Shown piece after piece: positions 28,155 through 55,091 of a DNA stretch of 64,000 bases (the stretch's first letter is position 1; each line of letters opens with the position of its first letter). Under the pieces are notes generated by a model, which did not search any database, had not been told where the DNA came from, and worked only from the letters and a program-made list of their open reading frames with translations. The position numbers were made by a program, and so were the translations under genes. The stretch is from Minisyncoccota bacterium. Lineage in GTDB: Bacteria > Patescibacteriota > Minisyncoccia > Phycocordibacterales > UBA9973. The stretch spans positions 15,967 through 79,966 of the forward strand of contig JBAYUN010000002.1 in assembly GCA_041675085.1 (NCBI GenBank), read 5' to 3'.

Positions 28155-28244
28155 TGGCGGAGCCGGAGGGATTCGAACCCTCGAGACCTTTTACAGCCTG
28201 CCTCTTTAGCAAAGAGGTAGATTAGACCACTCTCCCACGGCTCC
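28155..28244 (-). tRNA. tRNA-Ser(GCU)
   Basis: The reverse complement gives GGAGCCG…anticodon stem CCTCT/AGAGG with loop TTGCTAA…long variable arm…GGGTTCGAATCCC…CGGCTCC-G-CCA. CCA is encoded. Confidence 0.85.
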
Positions 28245-28310: not shown

Positions 28311-28397
28311 GGAGAGATGGATGAGTGGTTTAAATCAACGGTTTACTAAACCGTCGTCCCTTAAACAGGACCGCGAGTTCGAATCTCGCTCTCTCCG
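28311..28397 (+). tRNA. Ser-type tRNA (long variable arm, discriminator G) with apparent anticodon ACU
   Basis: Acceptor GGAGAGA/TCTCTCC. D-arm GAT…ATC. Anticodon stem ACGGT/ACCGT with loop TTACTAA. Variable arm GTCC…GGAC. T-arm GCGAG-TTCGAAT-CTCGC. The anticodon reading is non-canonical (see findings). Confidence 0.6.
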
Positions 28398-28408
28398 CAG
28401 AGACAATA

Positions 28409-44630: not shown

Positions 44631-46502
44631 TTATTCTACTATTTTTTCAGGGATACGTAGGGATGATTTCACTACTCCTACATCCACCTTAGCAAAATCA
44701 TCATAACCCGTCAAAGTTGCCTTCTCGGCTATTACTGGAGAGTCTCCAACTTCAGACAAAGAAGGATTTATAGATACTTGGAAAGAAACTTCTTTCAAAG
44801 AACTCAATAGTCCCGTGCCTCGAGGTAGATTGCCTATATTCCAAGTAATAACTCGAGTTGCAGGGTCATAGGTCAGATTTTCATTATTAGGCAAAACTAC
44901 ATTTTTGTAATTCACCCGTGCTGGCAAAATAGATACAACTTTTGCACCAGAAACGTTGTTGGAAGTATTAGCCACACTCCAAGTAACTTTGTAAGTAGTC
45001 TCTTGTTCAGATTTTGGAGGCAAAGGCCCTGAGACATGAGCGACTTTAGTCAACATAGAAACATCAGAAAATATTTTTATATTTTTTTCTTCGACAGATT
45101 CTAGATTTTTAGTAATATTTCCACCGAGAGCTTGTTTGCCAGATATTGATATCTCAATACTCATCGAAGGATCGAGAAGCAAACTATTATTTTCAGTGAA
45201 AACATTTGGTGACAAAAGTCTAAATCTTACAGATCCGCCTGAGAGAGGTCTCACCACATCAAAACCTTCTTCGGTATTTTTATCCCAAACAATAGTATTC
45301 TTGCTTGAATCTAAGAACCCGTATTCTGTATCTACTTTCTTCACATCAAAAGCATTACCTCCAAATTTTGCTTTGATCTCAAGATCGTTGATAGGTGTGT
45401 TTAGATTATTAAACCAATTAATAGTACCAGTAATACCATTTCTACTACTAACGCTATACTCTCTCTTATAATCATTGTTCACATAAAGCTTGGCTTCTAC
45501 GAAAGGCTTCTTGATCAAAATATTATGTGCTAGTGAATTAAATACTACTCCTATCTGAGTCTTGTCTCCTTTTTGTTCGGGACCTACGAAAGCATGAAAG
45601 ATTTTAGCTTCTCCATCATAGACGTTGACCATGACGCCATTGATAACTATTTCTCTCTCTTCTCCTACTTTTAGATTGGATAAATCCCAAACATTATTAC
45701 CTATCGACGGAGCGGGTACAGCGGAAGTGAATTCAAAACCGAAAGGATAATCTAATTTTAAAAGCATACCATTTGCTACTTTGTTATCATTTAACACAGC
45801 TTTGACTTTAAAGCTCAAATCTTGATTTGTGGTTATTTCAGTTGGCGCATCGATAGCTAGATTTATCGGAGTAGAATTTATAGTAACTTTATAAAATTTA
45901 TCTTTTAGGAAAATAGCGTTAGAGCCTTCGAGTCTATACTCGAGCGAGATTTTGATTTCATGAATAGAGCCTTGTTCTCCATAGAGCACAACTTTCATAT
46001 CTTCATTTTTAATACTACCAGCCGGTATAACACCCAAAGATTTACGCAATCTCTCGATCTCACCATTACTATTTAAAGTAGAACCTTTTGGATATTCTAC
46101 AACCAAGTCCGCCAATTCTAATCCTGAAGTATTTTTATTTACAATCTCTATCACCAAAGGCAACTCTTCCCCTCCACCAGTAAAAGTATTACCCAAAACT
46201 GAAATCTCAATATTCTCATTAGAAACTTCGTTGCCTCCTACAAAAAAATTAAATAGTAGATAAATACTAGCAGCAACAAAAAGTAAAATAGAAAAAATAA
46301 AAAAGTTACGGAAAAAATGATTCTTCTTAATAGCTGGCTCTTTTATTCCAGTATCTTCATGCTTCCAAGCTTCAGGCACTTTTTCTTTTTTGAGGAATAC
46401 AAAACCTTCTCGATCCTCAATACGAGTCTCGTAGCTACGGCTAAAGATTTTTCTTTTCATATCTTCAACCTTATTTAGTCCATTTTGATTTTCATCTGAC
46501 AT
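44631..46502 (-). CDS. large surface protein: cytoplasmic N-terminus, one transmembrane segment, β-rich CARDB/DUF11-like extracellular repeats
   Basis: Transmembrane segment FFRNFFIFSILLFVAASIYLLF followed by about 540 aa of β-strand-like repeats. Confidence 0.45.
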   Translation of the reverse strand: MSDENQNGLNKVEDMKRKIFSRSYETRIEDREGFVFLKKEKVPEAWKHEDTGIKEPAIKKNHFFRNFFIFSILLFVAASIYLLFNFFVGGNEVSNENIEISVLGNTFTGGGEELPLVIEIVNKNTSGLELADLVVEYPKGSTLNSNGEIERLRKSLGVIPAGSIKNEDMKVVLYGEQGSIHEIKISLEYRLEGSNAIFLKDKFYKVTINSTPINLAIDAPTEITTNQDLSFKVKAVLNDNKVANGMLLKLDYPFGFEFTSAVPAPSIGNNVWDLSNLKVGEEREIVINGVMVNVYDGEAKIFHAFVGPEQKGDKTQIGVVFNSLAHNILIKKPFVEAKLYVNNDYKREYSVSSRNGITGTINWFNNLNTPINDLEIKAKFGGNAFDVKKVDTEYGFLDSSKNTIVWDKNTEEGFDVVRPLSGGSVRFRLLSPNVFTENNSLLLDPSMSIEISISGKQALGGNITKNLESVEEKNIKIFSDVSMLTKVAHVSGPLPPKSEQETTYKVTWSVANTSNNVSGAKVVSILPARVNYKNVVLPNNENLTYDPATRVITWNIGNLPRGTGLLSSLKEVSFQVSINPSLSEVGDSPVIAEKATLTGYDDFAKVDVGVVKSSLRIPEKIVE

Positions 46503-46521
46503 GGAATAATTATATCATATT

Positions 46522-47106
46522 TTAAAGTTGTGTTTCACGTAAAGCCTTGTTGATCTCTAGCAATACTTCCTTTTTATTTTTTGCTATTCCGGAGAGGATA
46601 TTACTATCTTCAAAAGGAGATTTTATCAGAGCTGAGAAAGATTCTTCACCGTCAATGTAGCCGAGATTATACAAAGCTCTCAACACCATTATGATTTCTA
46701 TGTTTTGTAGTTCTTGTCTATCAGAGTTATTGTTCAACACAAAAAGTCCGTTCAAGAAATCTTGAAAGAGATTGGTGTTCTTTTCTTGTTCAGGCAACAA
46801 TCTGATTAAAAGCTTGGATAAATTTGCCAAAATTTTTAACTTAAAAAATTCTTGATTGATAGCTTCGAGTTCATTGGTCTTAGAAGCTGTAGTAATACGC
46901 CAAATATTTTTTCTTTGGATTAGATCGAGTTTAATATAAGAATAATCTTGCAATACATAACGTAACTTTGAAGTTATCTTGCGCACTCCTTCTGCCTCCG
47001 CATACACAAGCCCTAAATCACGAGTAAAAATATGATAATACTTCCCCGCTTCCTTAAAGTTCCTACTGCCTAATATTATTCCCTCTGTATGATATATATG
47101 GTGCAT
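46522..47106 (-). CDS. recO: RecO-like recombination mediator (N-terminal OB fold, no Zn finger)
   Basis: HTEGIILGSRNFKEAGKYYHIFTRDLGLVYAEAEGVRK matches the RecO N-terminal domain pattern. Confidence 0.5.
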   Translation of the reverse strand: MHHIYHTEGIILGSRNFKEAGKYYHIFTRDLGLVYAEAEGVRKITSKLRYVLQDYSYIKLDLIQRKNIWRITTASKTNELEAINQEFFKLKILANLSKLLIRLLPEQEKNTNLFQDFLNGLFVLNNNSDRQELQNIEIIMVLRALYNLGYIDGEESFSALIKSPFEDSNILSGIAKNKKEVLLEINKALRETQL

Positions 47107-47114
47107 TAATAAAT

Positions 47115-47774
47115 CTATTTTATCATATATCCTTTCAACTCTTCTAGAATAGGAGCTATAGTTGTATCGTTTACGTCTTCTGGTTTGATTTTACAATTTG
47201 CAAAAATTTGTCTTTCTATTTCTTTACCACAAGCAAGTAATGTTTCAAAACTTTCCTTAGTATCCAAAAATTTAGTATTTTCATAACGCCTTTTTACGTC
47301 ACTCATTCGTTCATGGTAAGATAAAATTCCATAAGGACCTACTCTTACATCAGCATAATTAACAATCTTTTTTTCAAATTCGTCAGATTCTAAAGCTTGA
47401 TTACAAAATTCACCATGATCTCCAAATTCTTCTAAAAGTTTGATAATTTCTTCTGAAACTCCTATTTCTTTAGCAATGATTGAGGTAGCTTTATGTTCAT
47501 CGTATCCATACTTGGCAAAATATTCATTTTGAATATTTTGCCAATATTCCAAACCAAGAGGTTTAACAAATCCAGGAAAAACTCCTAATTTAAATTTTAT
47601 AATATTACCCATATCATGAAACAAGGCTGCTGTAATAATTTTATTTTTATCTAAGATAATCGCATCATCTAAATTTTCTAAAATTATCTTAGTTACACTA
47701 GCTACTCGCAATTGATGCATCGCAAGATTCGGCATTATTTTATATTGCTCGTAAATCTCTAAAATATTCCGCAT
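47115..47774 (-). CDS. HD-domain phosphohydrolase
   Basis: H…HD (ALFHDMGN) …D metal-ligand pattern. Confidence 0.6.
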   Translation of the reverse strand: MRNILEIYEQYKIMPNLAMHQLRVASVTKIILENLDDAIILDKNKIITAALFHDMGNIIKFKLGVFPGFVKPLGLEYWQNIQNEYFAKYGYDEHKATSIIAKEIGVSEEIIKLLEEFGDHGEFCNQALESDEFEKKIVNYADVRVGPYGILSYHERMSDVKRRYENTKFLDTKESFETLLACGKEIERQIFANCKIKPEDVNDTTIAPILEELKGYMIK

Positions 47775-50700
47775 TTATTTTTGTATTTTAATTTTAAATA
47801 CTAATTCCCCTACTTTTACTTCTATTCCGTCATTTGACTCAAAAGAAATCTCGCGAATACCTGCCACTTTTTTGAAATCATCTTCAAATTTCTTAACTAT
47901 ATTTTCTCCTGTACTATCTGTCTCAATAAATAAAGTTATCATATCACTAGGTATCAATCCTTCTTTTTTGCGAGAATCTTGTATAGAACGTAAAAATTCA
48001 CGATACAATCCTTCTTCCTTTAATTCTGAAGTTATATTTATATCCAAATTAATTTCTTCTCCGAATAAAATTGCTTTGACATTCAATTCATCTTTTATAA
48101 TCTCTAAAAATTCAGCATTCAAATCTTTATTGGTAACAGTAAAAGAAGCAAGTGGTTGACGTACTGGTAGATTATTTTTCTGACGCATTTGTAAGCCAGT
48201 AGAAACTAAATCTCTAACTATTTGCATCTTCTCTATAACCTCAACACTAGAACCTAAAACCTGACCTGTAGGCCACTCTGCCAAATGCACACTTTCTGCG
48301 TCTGCATTATTTCTAAGTTTTAACCAAATATCTTCAGAAGCAAAAGGAGTGAATGGAGCCATGATTTTTACCAAATTCTTCAACACAAAATACAAAGTTT
48401 GTTTTGCTTCCATATCTCCATCTTTAATCCTGTCTCTATTTCGACGTAAATACCAAGTAGAAAGATCTCCGATAAAATCTCGCAACGCACGAGCTGGTTC
48501 TAAAACTTTATAATTATCTAACTCTAAAGTTGAGAGTTCTACCAATTCACCAAGCTTCGCTAAAATCCATTGATCCAAAATATTTGCACTTTGAGTAAAT
48601 TCATTCTTCTCTAAGTCACGGTCTCTATAAAGTTCATAAAAAGCGAGCACGTTATAAAGAAGTCCGAAAACCTGACTGTGTAGTATAGCTACAGTCTTCT
48701 CATCAAAGTTCTTGCTCTCGCCTGGTTGATTCACTGAGTACATCCAGAGACGCAAAGTATCGACTCCGTATTTCTCTATCATAGAAAAGGGTTCAACGAT
48801 ATTACCTTGAGATTTACTCATCTTTTTACCTTTAGCATCAAGTAAATGCCCGAGACAGATAACGTTTTTATAAGCCTTACCGCGACCCATCAAAGTCCCT
48901 ACTGCGTGAAGCGTATAGAACCATCCTCTTGTCTGATCGATAGCTTCTGAAATATAATCCGCCGGATAACCTACTCCTTCGATACGTTCTTTGTTCTCAA
49001 AAGGATAATGATCCTGAGCGAAAGGCATAGCTCCACTATCAAACCACACGTCCATAACGTCTTTGATTCTCTTATATTCTTTACCGTCACGTTCCAAGAC
49101 CACCTCGTCAACATAAGGACGATGCAAATCTAGAGCAAACTTTTCATCATGAGGAAAAGGCACAAAGTCCAAAGTACTGAATTCTGAATTCGCTAGATAA
49201 TGAAAATCTTTTTTAGAATTAATTAATTCTAAAGTCTCAGCTAGTGATAAATTCTCCGATCCAGAATACATAAGCCAAGCTGGGCCACCGTGAGTCACAA
49301 ATAAAATATTCTTATCTTGATACTTGTTTTCTATATCAAAAAGAAAATCCATAACTCGAGTTTGCACATCTTTGTATGATTCATCACCCTGATTTTTCTT
49401 ATCAAAGTTCTCTAAAGTCTTTGGATAATCTTTATGATAATCGTCCCAGTTTTTACCTTCATAAGAAAGCACTTGCATCTCACCTATTCGTACATCGGTC
49501 AAAATATCTTCTTCTTTAAGATTCAATACTGTCGCAATAATCTTTGAAGTCTCAAGAGTACGATAATAAGGTGAACTTATAATCAAATCAATATTTTTAT
49601 CTTTTAAGGATTCAGCCGAAACACGAGTAGCTTCTTTGCCTAAATCTGTGAGAATACTTCCCTTTTCTATTTTTGTACTGACTATGTTTTTAGTATTATT
49701 TTCTGTCTGACCATGACGCATTACAAAATATTTATTATTACTTTTTTTAGTATATTTTTTTAGAGTCGCGATACTATCTACAACAAGAGTCTCTTTGTCT
49801 TCTGAGACCCAAATAGGAAGCGGAGTTCCCCAATATCTTTCGCGAGAAATAGCCCAGTCTTTTATACCCGCGAGCCATTCTCCAAAACGCCCTTCCCTAG
49901 TATGCAAAGGTTCCCAGTTGATAGTCTTGTTCTCTTCTATCATTCTCTCTTTGATATTTTTGTCAGTCATGCGAATATACCAAGAATCCCGCGCATAATA
50001 AATCAGTGCGGTTTTGCAACGCCAACAATGAGGATAAGAGTGCTCGTAAAGTTCTTTGTGAAAAAATAGATTCTTCTCTTGCAAATATTTAATAATATCT
50101 ACGTCGAGAGTCGGCTTGCCACTCTCGTCTTTTTCTTTTACAAAACGACCACTCAAGAAATCCATACCTTGAATAAATTTACCTTCGAGGTTCACCACAT
50201 GATGCTTTGGTAGTCCTATCTCTGTACCTAGATCAAAGTCATCTGCTCCATACATCACCGCAGTATGTACAACTCCAGTACCGTCTTCTGTGGTCACGAA
50301 ATCTGCTCCGTAAACTTTGAAAGCTTTTTCTAGTTTTGGTTTTTCACTATCTGAGATAGTACTTTCTAGATAAGGGAAAAGTGGTTCGTATTCTAGACCA
50401 ACAAGTTCAGAGCCTTTGAATTTTTCTATAATCTCAAAACCTTCTCCTAAAAGAGATATTCTAGCTTCTGCCAAAATAAAAAAATCTTCACCTTTCTTAA
50501 CTTTCACATAATCTATATCTTTCCCTACAGCTAGAGCCACGTTACCAGGTAAAGTCCAAGGAGTTGTAGTCCAAGCGAGGATAAAAGTATTAACAAAAAT
50601 ATTTTCCTGTTCGGGTCTCTCGCAGGCTGACGAGCCGAGAGTGAGCGCTGAGCCAGCAGGCTCAGACAGCGACCCGACAGGAATATTATTTTTGTTTTTT

Positions 50701-51335
50701 AATTTAAACTTCACATACAAAGACAAGTCTTTCACATCTTCATAGCCTTGCGCGAGTTCATGAGAAGACAAAGTCGTCCCGCAACGAGGACACCAAGGCA
50801 CAACTTTATAATCTTTATAAATTAATTTTTGCTCATCTATTTTACCGACAACATTCCAAAGAGATTCAATATAATTATTCTCATAAGTTGCATAAGGATT
50901 TTCTTGATCTACCCAATACCCTATTCTCTTTGTAAAAGTATTCCAAAATTCTAAATATTCCCAAACGCTTTCTTTGCATTCACGATTGAACTTTGCGATA
51001 CCGTATTCTTCAATAGCTTTTTTAGAGTTTAGTCCGAGTTTCTTCTCTACTTGCAACTCTACAGGCAATCCGTGAGTGTCCCAACCTCCTTTGCGGCGCA
51101 CATAAAAACCTCGCATAGTTTTATATCGAGGGATCACATCTTTAAAAGCTCGAGCTTCGAGGTGATGAATTCCAGGTTTACCGTTGGCAGTAGGAGGACC
51201 TTCGTAAAATACGAATTCCTTTTCTCCTGCCCTACTTTGCATAGATTTTTGAAAGATTTGATTCTGTTCCCAGAACTCTAAAACTTTCTCTTCTCGCAAT
51301 GCACTTTCACTTTTTTGATTTTTATTTTCTTCCAT
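47775..51335 (-). CDS. ileS: isoleucyl-tRNA synthetase carrying an inserted histidine phosphatase (PGAM-like) domain
   Basis: Class I motifs PGIHHLE (HIGH-like), WTTTPWTLP, DVWFDSG and KMSKSQGN. The internal domain of about 210 aa has RHGQTENN, IISSPYYRTLETS and ILFVTHGG histidine-phosphatase signatures. 1186 aa with no stop codons. Confidence 0.85.
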   Translation of the reverse strand: MEENKNQKSESALREEKVLEFWEQNQIFQKSMQSRAGEKEFVFYEGPPTANGKPGIHHLEARAFKDVIPRYKTMRGFYVRRKGGWDTHGLPVELQVEKKLGLNSKKAIEEYGIAKFNRECKESVWEYLEFWNTFTKRIGYWVDQENPYATYENNYIESLWNVVGKIDEQKLIYKDYKVVPWCPRCGTTLSSHELAQGYEDVKDLSLYVKFKLKNKNNIPVGSLSEPAGSALTLGSSACERPEQENIFVNTFILAWTTTPWTLPGNVALAVGKDIDYVKVKKGEDFFILAEARISLLGEGFEIIEKFKGSELVGLEYEPLFPYLESTISDSEKPKLEKAFKVYGADFVTTEDGTGVVHTAVMYGADDFDLGTEIGLPKHHVVNLEGKFIQGMDFLSGRFVKEKDESGKPTLDVDIIKYLQEKNLFFHKELYEHSYPHCWRCKTALIYYARDSWYIRMTDKNIKERMIEENKTINWEPLHTREGRFGEWLAGIKDWAISRERYWGTPLPIWVSEDKETLVVDSIATLKKYTKKSNNKYFVMRHGQTENNTKNIVSTKIEKGSILTDLGKEATRVSAESLKDKNIDLIISSPYYRTLETSKIIATVLNLKEEDILTDVRIGEMQVLSYEGKNWDDYHKDYPKTLENFDKKNQGDESYKDVQTRVMDFLFDIENKYQDKNILFVTHGGPAWLMYSGSENLSLAETLELINSKKDFHYLANSEFSTLDFVPFPHDEKFALDLHRPYVDEVVLERDGKEYKRIKDVMDVWFDSGAMPFAQDHYPFENKERIEGVGYPADYISEAIDQTRGWFYTLHAVGTLMGRGKAYKNVICLGHLLDAKGKKMSKSQGNIVEPFSMIEKYGVDTLRLWMYSVNQPGESKNFDEKTVAILHSQVFGLLYNVLAFYELYRDRDLEKNEFTQSANILDQWILAKLGELVELSTLELDNYKVLEPARALRDFIGDLSTWYLRRNRDRIKDGDMEAKQTLYFVLKNLVKIMAPFTPFASEDIWLKLRNNADAESVHLAEWPTGQVLGSSVEVIEKMQIVRDLVSTGLQMRQKNNLPVRQPLASFTVTNKDLNAEFLEIIKDELNVKAILFGEEINLDINITSELKEEGLYREFLRSIQDSRKKEGLIPSDMITLFIETDSTGENIVKKFEDDFKKVAGIREISFESNDGIEVKVGELVFKIKIQK

Positions 51336-51521
51336 AATTTTAAAAATAGTTAATAAAAAAACTCGTCCTTAAATTACAACATAAAGTTATAATTCAAGGA
51401 CGAGTTTCAAGCCCGTGGTACCACCTTGTTTGCTTCTTAATTTATAGGGTTCTACGCTTTTTACAAAGTTTCTTCCCAAAGCTCCAGAGTGATAGCTCCT
51501 TCAACGCTTATAAACAGAATA
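51336..51521 (-). promoter_or_regulatory. T-box riboswitch leader (probably Ile-specific) upstream of ileS
   Basis: The minus-strand leader contains AAGGUGGUACCACGGG (T-box consensus AGGGUGGNACCGCG). This is followed by a 17-bp terminator hairpin (aaactcgtccttgaatt…aatttaaggacgagttt) plus a U7 run immediately before the ATG. A candidate specifier GCUAUCA (AUC=Ile) lies in the 5' stem region. Confidence 0.6.
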
Positions 51522-53294
51522 CTACATTCTCTCTGGACTTTCAATACCTAAAAGATAAAGTCCGTTTTGCATGATGCGAGTAAAGGCTACCGTGAGGGCG
51601 AGTTTGTACGGAGACTCAGAGTCTTCGGTATTTACTATTTGATTATTCCCGTAGAAATTATTGAAGTTATGAGCGAGTTCTATTAGATAATGAGTTATAT
51701 AATGTGGAGCGTATTCGTTTTGAGCGCGAGATACAATTTCTGGGAATTTGTATAATATTTTTTCAATTTCTAAAATCTCTTGTTTGTCTGTAGCAGTAGC
51801 CTCTTTGATATTTTCTCTTTTAGCTTTTTCTAAAATAGAGTTAGCGCGAGCAAAAGAATATTGCAAATACGGACCTGAATCCCCTTCGAAAGAAATAGAC
51901 TTTTCAAAATCATAAATAATATCTCCTCCGATAGCTTGACGCAAAATAGAAAACTTCAAGGCTCCTACTCCGACAGAATTCGCAACTTTTTGCTTCTCAT
52001 CATCATCCCAATCCCTGTCTTTTACTTTCTCTAGGATAGAATCTGAGACGTCTTTGATAAGAGATTCCCCAGTAATGATATTCCCTTTTCTAGAACTCAT
52101 CTTGCCTGTAGCGAACCGTAGCATGCCGTGAGTTATATGCTTCATACGGGATTCGTATTCTGGGTGAATTAGAGAAATAGCTTTTGAGACAACTTTCATA
52201 TATTCACCTTGCTCAATAGCAGTAATCACAATAGAAGTATCCGGATTTTCTTTTTCAAATTTTGTCACAGTGAGCCCTATCTCTTTGGTCTCATAAGTAG
52301 GCAAACCTTCACTATTTATGAAGACACGTGTGTGGAGTTTCGGATCATATTTCTCTCCATGGAAAACTATCGCGCCGTTAGACTCTTCAAATACTTTAGC
52401 ACCGTTCTCGCCTAAATTCTTATTCACTATCTCGCGACCACGTTCGGCCATAGCGCTCTCAAAGAAATAGTGCTTGAACTTTGTACCCAAGACTTTATAT
52501 ATAGTCTCAAAAGCTTCAAGCGTAATAACTCTACCTAACATGTAGATCTCATTTATTTTCTCGTCTGACTTTTCATAAACTTGTTTGTTGATTTTATTTA
52601 TTTCTTTTTTAATCTCCTCATCTTCTTCGTACAAATTCGAAGCGAAAGAATAACATTCACCGATATATAGAGCTTGTTCGTTTACAGACTTAGATACGTC
52701 TGGCATACCTTTTTGCAAGATTCCATAAATTGCTTTCGCTACGTGAAGCCCGACGTCACCTTGGTAGTTGGCACGGATTGTCTCGGCTCCAGAGTATTCT
52801 ACGAGACGAGAGAGGGATTCCCCTATCGCATTACTCATCAAATGCCCAATATGAAAAGGCTTGAAAGGATTCGGGTCGGTATATTCTACCATGATTATCT
52901 CACCTTCTTTTGAATTATTTTTACCAAATTTTTCATCTTCAAGAATTTCATTTAAAGAATTAATAAAGAATTTCTTAGATAAATAGAAATTAATAAATCC
53001 AGGACCCGCAACTTCTATTTGTGCAATAGATTCCTCAAGGTCGGACCTTGGGGCTTCTTTAAGGTCCGACCTTAAAAATTCAACTATTTTTTCTGCTAAT
53101 TCACGTGGATTAGTTTTACTTTCTTTCGCAAATACCATAGCTACATTCGTAGAAAAATCCCCCATTTTTAAATCAGCTGGATGCTCCACAGAAAAAGAAG
53201 CCTCGCTGTTTATATCAAGTTTTTTTAAAGCCTCTTTTATTAAATTTTCTAACTTTGTTTTTATGTTCATTTTATTTATGCCCTGTTGTGCCAA
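51522..53294 (-). CDS. argS: arginyl-tRNA synthetase
   Basis: Arg_tRNA_synt_N region …IEVAGPGFINFYL, HIGH as PFKPFHIGHL, and the C-terminal DALR domain. The start is possibly the internal MNIKTKL (about 53270). Confidence 0.85.
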   Translation of the reverse strand: MAQQGINKMNIKTKLENLIKEALKKLDINSEASFSVEHPADLKMGDFSTNVAMVFAKESKTNPRELAEKIVEFLRSDLKEAPRSDLEESIAQIEVAGPGFINFYLSKKFFINSLNEILEDEKFGKNNSKEGEIIMVEYTDPNPFKPFHIGHLMSNAIGESLSRLVEYSGAETIRANYQGDVGLHVAKAIYGILQKGMPDVSKSVNEQALYIGECYSFASNLYEEDEEIKKEINKINKQVYEKSDEKINEIYMLGRVITLEAFETIYKVLGTKFKHYFFESAMAERGREIVNKNLGENGAKVFEESNGAIVFHGEKYDPKLHTRVFINSEGLPTYETKEIGLTVTKFEKENPDTSIVITAIEQGEYMKVVSKAISLIHPEYESRMKHITHGMLRFATGKMSSRKGNIITGESLIKDVSDSILEKVKDRDWDDDEKQKVANSVGVGALKFSILRQAIGGDIIYDFEKSISFEGDSGPYLQYSFARANSILEKAKRENIKEATATDKQEILEIEKILYKFPEIVSRAQNEYAPHYITHYLIELAHNFNNFYGNNQIVNTEDSESPYKLALTVAFTRIMQNGLYLLGIESPERM

Positions 53295-53700
53295 AACCTC
53301 CTCGGTCGGTAGCTTCCATATTCTCTACTTCTTCCCATTCTGGAATTTCAATTTTAACAAAAGCTCCCTGACCAATACGTTCCCCTTTTTCGACTACTAC
53401 GTCAGTATCAGTAATATTATAAACTTGGAGCAATATCTCATCAGTATCTCCACAATAGTCAGTATCAATATATCCAGTACTTACTAGCAGTCCTTTTTTC
53501 TTTAAAGTACTTGATCGGTCCTTTATTTCTAGCATATAACCTTTGGGTATTGCAATGATTACATTAGTCGGCAATCTCTCTAAAGTTTTAGGCGGGATAG
53601 TGATATCAATACGTGAGTACAAGTCAAAAGCCACAGCGCCAATAGTCTGATATGCTGGCATTGGTAAACTTTTATCTATTCTTTTGATTTTAACTTTCAT
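53272..53700 (-). CDS. dut: dUTP diphosphatase
   Basis: dUTPase motifs AVAFDLYS, GLLVSTGYIDTDYCG and RGGFGTTG. Confidence 0.8.
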   Translation of the reverse strand: MKVKIKRIDKSLPMPAYQTIGAVAFDLYSRIDITIPPKTLERLPTNVIIAIPKGYMLEIKDRSSTLKKKGLLVSTGYIDTDYCGDTDEILLQVYNITDTDVVVEKGERIGQGAFVKIEIPEWEEVENMEATDRGGFGTTGHK

Positions 53701-53735
53701 AACTTTACAATAGCATAAATTATCTAGAATTTAAA

Positions 53736-54272
53736 TTAAAACAATTCTTTAATAATTTTATTATACATTTCAAAATAATCATCAGAATAAAATCTTGGTA
53801 TTACTTTTCCTTTCATTTCTTCTGAAAAGTTTTTAATTTCTTCTAAAGAAAACTTTCTAAATCCCAAACCAGCACCTTCTTCTATTTTAAATTCTTCTAA
53901 ATTTCCTTCACATATTCCTGCGAAAATGCATCTAAAAGCATTATTCTGTGTTTTTGTATTTGGATCAAAGCTTTCTCTATATTGTTTTTCAATAAATTTT
54001 ATTGTTACTTTAATTCCTGTTTCTTCTAAAAGTTCCCTTTGGGCACATTCTTGGTATGATTCATATTTTGTATCTACATGACCACCCACAGTAACATCAT
54101 AAAAACCAGGCCAAGTATCTTGATGATCTCCTCTTTTTTGAAAAATAAATTCTTGGTTTGGTGTCACCAACCAAACATGTATCTCTCGATGTTTTAAACC
54201 ATTTTGGTGAATTATTTTTCTTTCTTCTTCACCTATTATTTCATCTTGTTCATTTACTATTGGGATTTTCAT
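53736..54272 (-). CDS. NUDIX hydrolase
   Basis: Nudix box GGHVDTKYESYQECAQRELLEETGI. Confidence 0.75.
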   Translation of the reverse strand: MKIPIVNEQDEIIGEEERKIIHQNGLKHREIHVWLVTPNQEFIFQKRGDHQDTWPGFYDVTVGGHVDTKYESYQECAQRELLEETGIKVTIKFIEKQYRESFDPNTKTQNNAFRCIFAGICEGNLEEFKIEEGAGLGFRKFSLEEIKNFSEEMKGKVIPRFYSDDYFEMYNKIIKELF

Positions 54273-54275
54273 ATT

Positions 54276-55091
54276 TTAAACTTTCAACTTAATATTAAAA
54301 GAAACAGTCAACGACTCTTTTGGTTTTATTATTGTTGGCTCTAGTATTATACCTCCTATATCATGCATCACCGGTTCTATACAAACAAAGTCTTTATCTG
54401 ACATAGACCAAACCCAAATCTTTTTATACTCTTTATCTATCGTGAATATTAAAGTTCCGAGTTCTGGAATATAAACTTCCAAAGGTATATTTGGATTATC
54501 TATAGATACAGCTTTACCATTCGCCCATTTTTCAATATTTTCTTTTACAAAATCTCCACCCGGGAAATTAAATTCTATATTTTGTTTTTGTGCATTAGCA
54601 ACTTTAAAATAAGGATGCAGCCCGCTAGAGATAGGCATTTCTTGATTTTCATTTAAATTCTGAATATTTTTAGTTAAAGTAAAAGAACTGTCTTCTTCTA
54701 AGACTCCACTTATGGTCAATTTAAAATCATGAGGATAAACACTTTTTGTATTTTCATCAGAAATTAAAGTCTCAGAAAAACTATTTTCTTTATTTTCAGA
54801 ACTCCATTTTATATCTCTAGCAAAACCATGTTGTTTTAAATTAATATACTCTTCCGTCTTTATCTCTTCTGGAATAGGACCAGCATTAGGAAAAAGTATT
54901 GGTATACCTCCTCTAACACTAGCGTCTTTGTTTTTAAAAGTCTCATGATCTAAATATAAAATCTCTGCTCCATTTAGTTTTAAAGAAGTAATTATTCCAC
55001 CTCTTTCAGAAGAAAAAGAAACTTCTCCCTTATTAGGAGTTTGAATTTTTTCTATTTTGGGAGATTGACTAGGTATTTCAAATTTATTCAT
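54276..55091 (-). CDS. aldose 1-epimerase family protein (YeaD/hexose-6-phosphate mutarotase-like)
   Basis: RGGIPILFPNAG motif and an all-β length profile. Confidence 0.6.
   Translation of the reverse strand: MNKFEIPSQSPKIEKIQTPNKGEVSFSSERGGIITSLKLNGAEILYLDHETFKNKDASVRGGIPILFPNAGPIPEEIKTEEYINLKQHGFARDIKWSSENKENSFSETLISDENTKSVYPHDFKLTISGVLEEDSSFTLTKNIQNLNENQEMPISSGLHPYFKVANAQKQNIEFNFPGGDFVKENIEKWANGKAVSIDNPNIPLEVYIPELGTLIFTIDKEYKKIWVWSMSDKDFVCIEPVMHDIGGIILEPTIIKPKESLTVSFNIKLKV

Follow-up and report, generated by a model that had tools for sequence, protein, structure and literature searches.

A histidine phosphatase domain nested within the CP3 subdomain of isoleucyl-tRNA synthetase in Patescibacteria

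Few enzymes are as highly conserved as the aminoacyl-tRNA synthetases. Those of class Ia carry domains nested within the Rossmann fold, including the CP1 editing domain, the variable CP3 subdomain, and the leucine-specific domain of LeuRS, and each of these is joined to the fold by two short linkers. To our knowledge, the inserts known in class Ia either have aminoacyl-tRNA or tRNA as their target or serve as small structural elements, and none is a phosphatase or another enzyme of unrelated chemistry; new catalytic domains in the synthetase Rossmann fold are, as far as we know, uncommon, and every case to date has to do with tRNA or aminoacyl-tRNA. Histidine phosphatases fused to unrelated enzymes are known, as in RNase H/CobC and PFK-2/FBPase-2. 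Here, we analyze a 64,000-nucleotide stretch of DNA (the window) from a Minisyncoccota bacterium (assembly GCA_041675085.1, contig JBAYUN010000002.1, positions 15,967 to 79,966), in which ileS, the gene for isoleucyl-tRNA synthetase (IleRS), encodes a histidine phosphatase domain that, like the known class Ia inserts, interrupts the Rossmann fold and is tied to it by two short linkers.

The best sequence and fold matches to this insert are the phosphatases PhoE/YhfR (1h2e), PspA (4ij5), GpgP Rv2419c (4qih), and HFP (9mmh), which share with it a fold of ~200 aa, the RHG...R...E...H pattern, and a cap. These enzymes are free-standing and have defined substrates, whereas the insert is nested in a synthetase, is 20-24% identical to them, and reaches no equivalog cut-off. 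A second comparison is offered by the RNase H/acid phosphatases of the Rv2228c type (NF005567), in which a CobC-like phosphatase is linked covalently to an enzyme of nucleic acids and the two have no evident substrate in common. NF005567 is among the top NCBIfam matches of the insert, at 71.5 bits and thus far under its 326-bit cut-off, but proteins of the Rv2228c type are end-to-end fusions to a different host enzyme, whereas the insert in the window lies within the fold of its partner. A curated precedent for an IleRS with an additional unrelated enzyme domain is NF040702, an IleRS family with an N-acetyltransferase domain; its cut-off is 1999 bits, and neither the window protein (347 bits) nor P0081 (218 bits), a truncated relative described below, is a member. 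For the host itself, the closest described system is the GXHH-type IleRS2, which has the G-I-H-H signature and the type-2 C-terminal domains seen in the window protein and for which no phosphatase insert was reported (PMC10485003). In the literature, we found no paper describing a phosphatase nested in a synthetase, and recent surveys of IleRS evolution are silent on the subject. The architecture is present in public databases, where it has so far gone uninterpreted.

The host gene and the parts of it that frame the insert are as follows (all on the minus strand).

47775..51335, minus strand: ileS, type-2 isoleucyl-tRNA synthetase of 1186 aa, host of the insert; uninterrupted open reading frame
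49761..49829, minus strand: N-terminal half of CP3, aa 503-525, GTPLPIWVSEDKETLVVDSIATL; aligned with 8c8w up to residue 477
49131..49760, minus strand: insert of 210 aa, aa 526-735, consisting of the histidine phosphatase domain and two short linkers; without counterpart in solved IleRS2
49053..49130, minus strand: C-terminal half of CP3, aa 736-761, DLHRPYVDEV... running into DVWFDSG; aligned with 8c8w from residue 485

An earlier sequence-only reading of this DNA had described a continuous 1186-aa IleS with about 210 additional residues between VVDSIATL (aa 518-525) and DLHRPYVDEV (aa 736-745), upstream of DVWFDSG (aa 762-768). The frame is indeed unbroken across all 1186 aa, and the insert comprises aa 526-735, one nucleotide shorter at its lower edge than the 49130-49760 given in that reading. 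In Pfam searches of the whole protein, His_Phos_1 splits tRNA-synt_1 in two, and Anticodon_1 and DUF5915 (PF19302, the type-2 C-terminal domain, aa 1095-1186) follow C-terminal to these. The insert notwithstanding, the protein scores 869.7 bits against the 621.4-bit cut-off of the TIGR00392 ileS equivalog. Its top match in the Protein Data Bank (PDB) is 8c8w, IleRS2 of Priestia megaterium (E 7e-236), and 1ile is also among the best structures. In the 8c8w alignment, residue 528 of the window protein corresponds to residue 477 and residue 734 to residue 485, so that ~205 aa stand in place of ~7; the sequence-only reading had put the canonical length at about 15, which is right in magnitude but larger than the ~7 residues of 8c8w.

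The order of elements in yeast and Candida IleRS is the CP2-3 linker, CP3, and the second half of the Rossmann fold (PMC7955072, PMC7191050), and the CP2-3 linker, ARDWNVSRNRYWG, lines the pocket for the 3' end (CCA) of the tRNA (PMC7955072). The equivalent of this linker in the window protein is IKDWAISRERYWG. Because the published order maps onto the window protein in this way, the insert is, by alignment, within the CP3 subdomain, in its distal loop and between 8c8w residues 477 and 485. The fold of CP3 varies among IleRSs, being a Zn ribbon in Thermus, three helices in Staphylococcus aureus, and a beta-beta-alpha-alpha arrangement in Candida (PMC7191050). In the consensus of the clade to which the window protein belongs, the cysteine pairs of a Thermus-like zinc ribbon flank the insert (...VWxCxDC... 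before it and ...LxCxCG... after it). The CP3 of the window protein lacks these four cysteines (CxxC before the insert, CxC after it), and therefore its zinc ribbon has probably been lost.

The inserted segment contains the motifs FVMRHGQTENN (aa 537-547), IDLIISSPYYRTLETS (aa 582-597), and ILFVTHGG (aa 677-684), each where the sequence-only reading had quoted it as a hallmark of branch 1 of the histidine phosphatase superfamily. The Pfam profile and the residues of the putative active site are listed here with their conservation in an alignment of 154 fusion proteins; the catalytic roles are those that we assume from general knowledge of the superfamily.

49233..49727, minus strand: Pfam His_Phos_1 (PF00300), aa 537-701; E 1.8e-29, 103.2 bits, profile positions 2-166 of 194, gathering cut-off 21.7 bits
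49710..49718, minus strand: R540-H541-G542, the RHG motif with the presumed nucleophilic His; R and H in 100%, G in 99%
49695..49697, minus strand: N547, presumed phosphate-pocket asparagine; 98%
49560..49562, minus strand: R592, presumed second phosphate-binding Arg, in the SSPxxRTxET motif; 100%
49479..49481, minus strand: E619, putative proton donor; 99%
49290..49292, minus strand: H682, presumed second catalytic His, in VTHGG; 100%

All six residues (R540, H541, N547, R592, E619, and H682) are thus present and at least 98% conserved, in keeping with the suggestion that the domain is catalytically plausible. An AlphaFold2 model of aa 516-745 had a pLDDT of 90.5 and a pTM of 0.89, and aa 530-730 were the best-predicted part of a full-length model (pLDDT ~88-96). 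Foldseek searches with the model of the insert returned a probability of 1.00, with a mycobacterial hydrolase (6s2q), GpgP (4qih), PspA (4ij5/4ij6), HFP (9mmh), and PhoE (1h2e) as the top folds. Superpositions on phosphatases gave TM scores of 0.64-0.68 and rmsd values of 2.6-3.9 A, whereas phosphoglycerate mutases of the dPGM type ranked lower, with rmsd values of 5-7 A. By sequence and by predicted structure, the insert is a complete branch-1 histidine phosphatase domain that should fold independently and has the full catalytic set.

No NCBIfam equivalog among those for cobC, dPGM variants, PspA, RNase H/acid phosphatase, and SixA was reached by the insert. The cobC model gave 73.4 bits against a cut-off of 162.9, and PspA gave 59.8 against 350; among the mutase models, dPGM_arch gave 73 bits against 225, GpmB 39 against 261, and the others 19-30 against 81.7-378. 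The residue that follows the second His also varies among the fusions (HGG, HEA, HDS, HRL, HHT). These scores do not support assignment to a specific phosphatase subfamily, and the scores together with the fold ranking speak against identity as a dPGM. The label "PGAM-family" used in the sequence-only reading therefore holds for the superfamily but not for the mutases, whose models all fall below cut-off and whose folds are further from the insert than those of phosphatases. On these score and fold tests, the domain is inside the superfamily, outside every characterized subfamily, and no mutase.

The fusion is shared by a large group of relatives. A search with the insert alone returned IleRS fragments with the identical domain combination. 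Among genomes sampled at one per GTDB species, 15 contigs of Patescibacteria metagenome-assembled genomes (labelled Paceibacterota, Nomurabacteria, or Minisyncoccia, with some Saccharibacteria) matched the entire insert and its C-terminal junction, and in every one of them the insert lay inside an open IleRS frame, 12 of these frames being complete (1158-1317 aa) and three cut by contig ends. A whole-protein search of NCBI, JGI, ENA, and Logan assemblies found PF00300 in all 120 of the nearest clusters, at 60-86% identity; one of these clusters is a UniRef-listed IleRS of Ca. Nomurabacteria GW2011_GWE1_32_28. PGAP gives the fusion proteins no name more specific than "class I tRNA ligase family protein". 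When 1.84 billion representatives were searched exhaustively with phmmer, 6774 hits were obtained; of the best 150, 92 were embedded in synthetases, and most of the non-truncated embedded hits among these 150 carried the IleRS junction motifs WGxPxP, HRPYID, and DxWFDS. No sign was found of the frameshift or assembly join that would have reduced the fusion to two genes: the in-frame fusion recurs in more than 120 independent assemblies. The description of the arrangement as highly unusual stands with respect to the literature and fails with respect to sequence space: a large clade of Patescibacteria has the fusion as a rule, and, as set out below, it recurs in valyl-tRNA synthetase (ValRS).

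Within the 154 fusion proteins, the insert is the most variable part (mean column entropy 1.95, as compared with 0.8-1.2 for the catalytic core); at its junctions, N534, Y536, P728, and H729 are conserved. Against L003, the closest DNA relative, dN/dS was 0.16 in the insert and 0.13 in the remainder of the gene, values that are approximate at a dS of ~1.1. Pairwise identities of insert and core were correlated (Spearman 0.54), which is consistent with a single old acquisition followed by vertical descent. As judged from these sequence comparisons, the graft is old, has been inherited vertically, and is under purifying selection. In one related locus, L001 (Logan SRR28161539_36999), the ArgS-IleS order is kept and both genes are broken into many short reading frames; this looks like the result of a frameshift-rich, error-prone assembly more than of true gene decay.

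Additional copies of the domain occur at other positions and in a second synthetase. Several of the long hits among the best 150 of the phmmer search hold two to four His_Phos_1 domains. We mapped four insertion sites on the window protein: site A, in CP3 (aa 525/736); site A', at aa 746/753; site B, after DVWFDSGAMPFAQ (~aa 773-791); and site C, where the catalytic body meets the anticodon-binding domain (aa 907/915-920). More distant IleRSs (P0067, P0077, P0086, and P0124) have two or three domains, placed after DVWFDSG and at the boundary between the catalytic and anticodon-binding regions. P0067, which is encoded at 8001-12260 of L045 and has domains at sites B and C, is represented by five further members of its 90% cluster (six contigs in all, up to 1.06 Mb), and its neighboring genes are unlike those in the window (POR, SufBD, PurA, DAHP synthase, and an SLH protein). 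A tree of the domain copies is star-like, at 25-37% identity; the copies of P0006 cluster together, and in P0067 and P0077 the B copies pair with one another, as do the C copies. This pairing by site indicates that the B+C architecture is old. RH[G/A]...R...E...H is retained in every copy embedded in an IleRS.

P0006, with four copies, is a ValRS and not an IleRS. Of the 119 nearest ValRS clusters (P0279-P0396 plus P0006), 70 have the domain, in one to three copies apart from the four of P0006, and 49 close relatives lack it; the named clusters belong to Ca. Gracilibacteria or Peregrinibacteria. The median length is 1091 aa for ValRSs with the domain as compared with 916 aa for those without. 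The motifs that flank the domain in ValRS are WGHRIPVWYD and DTLDTWFSS; this position corresponds by homology to CP3, which the domain essentially replaces. The core R, H, and R hardly vary in these copies, and Glu is aligned in 56 of 83 and the second His in 72 of 83, counts that may be low in part through alignment error in the cap region. The ValRS junction sequences are quite unlike those of IleRS, and the ValRS copies score only ~80 bits against a profile of the IleRS site-A domain. For these reasons, as far as sequence can tell, the CP3 insertions in IleRS and ValRS are separate events at the same structural position of paralogous enzymes.

One truncated IleRS among the relatives, P0081 (JGI, 1066 aa), contains a Y1/RAYT domain (REP-associated tyrosine transposase) in CP1 at aa 326-472, in frame and at 81.3 bits against a cut-off of 80. 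At its CP3 site, P0081 has His_Phos_1 followed by a GNAT acetyltransferase domain.

The synthetase that houses the phosphatase appears to be functional, and its gene is preceded by a putative regulatory leader. The relevant features are listed here.

51162..51173, minus strand: class I signature G55-I-H-H58, a non-canonical GXHH, read from the sequence
48810..48824, minus strand: KMSKS, aa 838-842; K838, M839, S840, K841, and S842 invariant in the clade alignment
51355..51513, minus strand: putative reduced T-box leader of ileS; Rfam RF00230 at 38.7 bits, E 2.5e-7

Besides KMSKS, the CP1 editing motif WTTTPWTLP and the motifs DWAISRERYWG, DVWFDSG, and DQTRGWFY are invariant in the clade, and the signature NGKPGIHHLEAR is the majority form, found in 99 of 154 relatives. 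The scores of the window protein against the models for the mupirocin-resistance enzymes MupA and MupB fall short (760 bits against 1900). The T-box match lies below the RF00230 gathering score of 93; the leader was found in a permissive search, and none was found at the gathering threshold. Stem I is reduced from about 76 to six model-unaligned bases, and the remaining parts are a short specifier hairpin with the loop CUAUCA, in which AUC, an Ile codon, occupies 51493-51491, the T-box sequence AAGGUGGUACCACGGG at ~51427-51412, and a terminator stem with a U-run at 51406-51355. This leader resembles the ultrashort Stem I ileS T-boxes of Actinobacteria. Ahead of ileS in six related loci, L003-L007 and L012, the same AAGGUGGUACCACGGG box is found, and five of these, L003-L007, also have the AUCA loop. 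With respect to the signature, the GXHH variant is functional in IleRS2, where it confers mupirocin hyper-resistance (Brkic et al., PMC10485003). Because the motifs are intact and a putative reduced T-box leader with an AUC specifier precedes the gene, the host looks like the housekeeping type-2 IleRS of the cell, and it is probably the sole IleRS of a large uncultured clade. The other synthetases in the window are of ordinary size (MetRS, 481 aa; ArgRS, 590 aa; PheRS-beta), and a hidden Markov model of the insert matched no other open reading frame in the 64 kb.

Two observations concern the synthetase part of these proteins. In L012 (DATDVS010000005.1, 4450-8412), the signature motif is degenerate, reading KPVLHTMVPF in place of KPGIHHLEAR, and this protein could be a paralogue in the course of divergence or an enzyme whose function has shifted. 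The window protein also has a second insert of ~31 aa, IPVGSLSEPAGSALTLGSSACERPEQENIFV, of low complexity, at the start of the CP1 region (aa 218-248; 50592-50684, minus strand); it is absent from 8c8w and most relatives, is confined to the nearest relatives of the window protein, and is predicted to be disordered (pLDDT ~30).

Downstream of ileS lies a gene that could encode a partner of the phosphatase.

47115..47774, minus strand: HD-domain phosphohydrolase gene, a possible partner; Pfam HD 26.8 bits

In the window, the first base of this gene directly follows the ileS stop codon; the gene also comes after ileS in L003 and L006. In L012 and P0212, the HD protein is fused in frame to IleRS and replaces its last ~45 residues, giving a triple IleRS-His_Phos-HD fusion. 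In Pfam, the HD protein matched only the generic HD family and, weakly, HD_3/HDOD, with no HD_4 of the SpoT/SAH type; a PDB profile search gave a weak YfbR/OxsA-like match, 1xx7 alone (E 0.069); and neither the IleRS fusion nor the HD protein matched a PADLOC defence model. These three results speak against the neighbor being a SpoT-like hydrolase of alarmones or tRNA pyrophosphate. The order dUTPase-ArgRS-IleRS-...-RecO-623-aa protein is kept across the clade (44631-55091 in the window; L003-L017), and the slot between IleRS and RecO is filled differently from genome to genome, by HD, MBL-fold, HAD, or alpha/beta hydrolase genes. Since these slot genes vary between loci, the ileS neighborhood does not point to a substrate. 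Elsewhere in the window, two adjacent, divergent tRNA-Ser genes occupy 28155-28244 (minus strand) and 28311-28398 (plus strand) and have the anticodons GCU and ACU; an A34 tRNA-Ser(ACU) is unusual in bacteria.

What might the embedded domain do? The explanation that we favor, although we would place its likelihood somewhat short of even, is that it is an active phosphomonoesterase that acts on a small phosphorylated compound and is tethered to IleRS, so that its expression is locked to that of the synthetase. From sequence and modelling, we infer that the domain is an active phosphomonoesterase and not a mutase. Because the six catalytic residues are at least 98% kept while the rest of the domain drifts, catalysis or tight binding of phosphate is indicated. 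The chemistry would be phosphoryl transfer through H541, which would attack a phosphate held by R540, N547, R592, and H682; E619 would protonate the leaving group, and water would then free inorganic phosphate. The substrate is most likely a small phosphorylated metabolite or nucleotide, because most copies have a cap (it is present in nearly all embedded domains), the nearest folds are metabolite phosphatases, and the domains are not basic. The median pI of the embedded domains is ~6, equal to that of free homologues, and binding of nucleic acid is thus unsupported by charge. A tether is preferred over a channel because the domain sits at four or more different sites in other IleRSs, and in one to four copies, and the multiplicity of insertion sites therefore disfavors any precise geometry for channelling or proofreading. 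Under the small-compound explanation, the amount and timing of the phosphatase would be tied to the synthetase with no channelling to the aminoacylation site, and T-box control of ileS would induce it when tRNA-Ile is uncharged.

Several observations weigh against a small-compound substrate. In L012, which represents a rare sublineage, the domain lacks ~32 residues of the cap. Superfamily members directed to macromolecules (SixA, Sts, and PGAM5) are likewise without a cap. The neighborhoods of 25 free-standing relatives had no family common to more than four loci and gave no clue to a substrate. Moreover, CP3 comes after the CP2-3 linker that lines the pocket for the tRNA CCA end (PMC7955072), and the independent CP3 insertion in ValRS, together with the conserved N534, Y536, P728, and H729, suggests that the position or orientation of the domain relative to the synthetase may matter, which would fit a synthetase- or tRNA-directed role over hitch-hiking. 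A phosphatase directed to a macromolecule would free the tRNA 3' end of a blocking 2'/3'-phosphate or pyrophosphate, or would reverse inhibitory phosphorylation of the synthetase, as a built-in means of repair or immunity against lesions made by toxSAS (RelA/SpoT-homologue) enzymes, ribonuclease toxins, or HipA-type kinases. We consider this explanation unlikely but far from negligible. Pyrophosphorylation of the tRNA 3' end is known to be reversed by HD hydrolases, and HipA and HipT phosphorylate GltX and TrpS. Consistent with such a role are the adjacency of the CP3 site to the CP2-3 linker of the CCA pocket, the convergent arrival of the ValRS domain in CP3 through unrelated junctions, the HD phosphohydrolase that, in four lineages, abuts ileS or is fused to it, and the cap-less variant; in addition, the patchy presence in ValRS (70/119), the one to four copies, and a fast-evolving non-catalytic surface form the pattern expected of conflict functions. 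These points have to be set against embedded domains that are acidic to neutral, as free homologues are, a full cap and a resemblance to small-molecule phosphatases in most copies, and an HD neighbor that has no HD_4 of the SpoT/SAH type and is at best weakly YfbR/OxsA-like. The absence of PADLOC defence matches also counts against it, as do the copies at sites B and C, which may lie away from the CCA pocket. A related proposal is that repeated recruitment into CP3 of Patescibacteria synthetases (IleRS in Paceibacteria, ValRS in Gracilibacteria/Peregrinibacteria) gives a built-in quality-control or immunity activity, in which a tRNA 3' end damaged by toxSAS-type pyrophosphorylation or ribotoxin cleavage, or a synthetase phosphorylated by HipA, would be dephosphorylated and charging would resume; we regard this, too, as improbable, by a little more than the preceding explanation.

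Four other explanations were weighed against the tethered phosphomonoesterase. The fold could serve without catalysis, as an allosteric ligand sensor, a dimerization or scaffold module, or a tolerated replacement of CP3. The structural variability of CP3 among IleRSs, its near-complete replacement in ValRS, and the ValRS copies that apparently lack the Glu (~30%) or have N for the second His (~11%) can be rationalized in this way; many small His_Phos enzymes are dimers, and domains in tandem might imitate the dimeric or tetrameric state of free enzymes. Against this stand the retention of the six catalytic residues in the IleRS clade while the rest of the domain drifts and the presence of RH[GA]..R..E..H in all tandem IleRS copies, and the ValRS losses are perhaps partly alignment error; we find non-catalytic use rather doubtful. 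Self-protection, in which the domain would hydrolyze a phosphorylated antibiotic (a Trojan horse or adenylate mimic) aimed at IleRS or ValRS, draws on a host that already has the GXHH signature linked to mupirocin hyper-resistance, on the pairing of His_Phos with GNAT at CP3 in P0081, and on the NCBI curation of a GNAT-bearing IleRS family; GNATs that detoxify aminoacyl-nucleotide antibiotics, MccE and RimL, are known. However, we know of no phosphomonoester inhibitor of IleRS or ValRS, histidine phosphatases cut monoesters, whereas the links in known adenylate mimics are phosphoramidate or sulfamoyl, and the trait is fixed over a deep IleRS divergence instead of being sporadic, all of which make self-protection very unlikely. 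Hardly more credit, and indeed slightly less, is due to a moonlighting glycolytic dPGM activity for a reduced genome: superfamily membership is shared, archaeal dPGM is one of the top-scoring NCBIfam models (73 bits), and the gene sets of Patescibacteria are minimal, but every dPGM model is far under its cut-off (73 against 225 bits; 19-39 against 81.7-378), the dPGM superpositions are poorer than those of phosphatases, and the residue after the second His is variable instead of fixed. Finally, an artefact, whether two genes joined by a frameshift or an assembly error or an intein-like element removed by splicing, is next to inconceivable. The GC content of the insert (0.29-0.35) is somewhat lower than that of its flanks (0.37-0.41), but the frame is continuous, the identical architecture is found in 120 of 120 clusters and in 15 reading frames from metagenome-assembled genomes, and each half of the IleRS is incomplete without the other. 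The continuous frame and its recurrence in independent assemblies rule out an assembly or frameshift artefact. The 1186-aa protein has no Hint or intein match in Pfam, and the junctions (...KKSNNKY and ...PHDEKFALD) have no Cys/Ser/Thr nucleophiles and no Cys/Ser...His-Asn-Cys/Ser/Thr pattern; an intein or mobile element is ruled out because there is neither a Hint domain nor a set of splice-junction residues.

The recurrence of the domain in IleRS and ValRS, in up to four copies, argues for a selective link between phosphoester hydrolysis and the charging of Ile and Val, and places that link in episymbiotic bacteria with minimal genomes. For annotation, the consequence is that metabolic reconstructions could miscount these proteins as PGAM. 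If the target is a metabolite, the fusion would show reduced genomes coupling a metabolic step to translation capacity. If the target is instead tRNA or the synthetase, the fusion would add a new level at which translation is quality-controlled or toxins are resisted, and, should the quality-control or immunity reading be true, phosphatase activity would be a third catalytic function of synthetases beside aminoacylation and editing.

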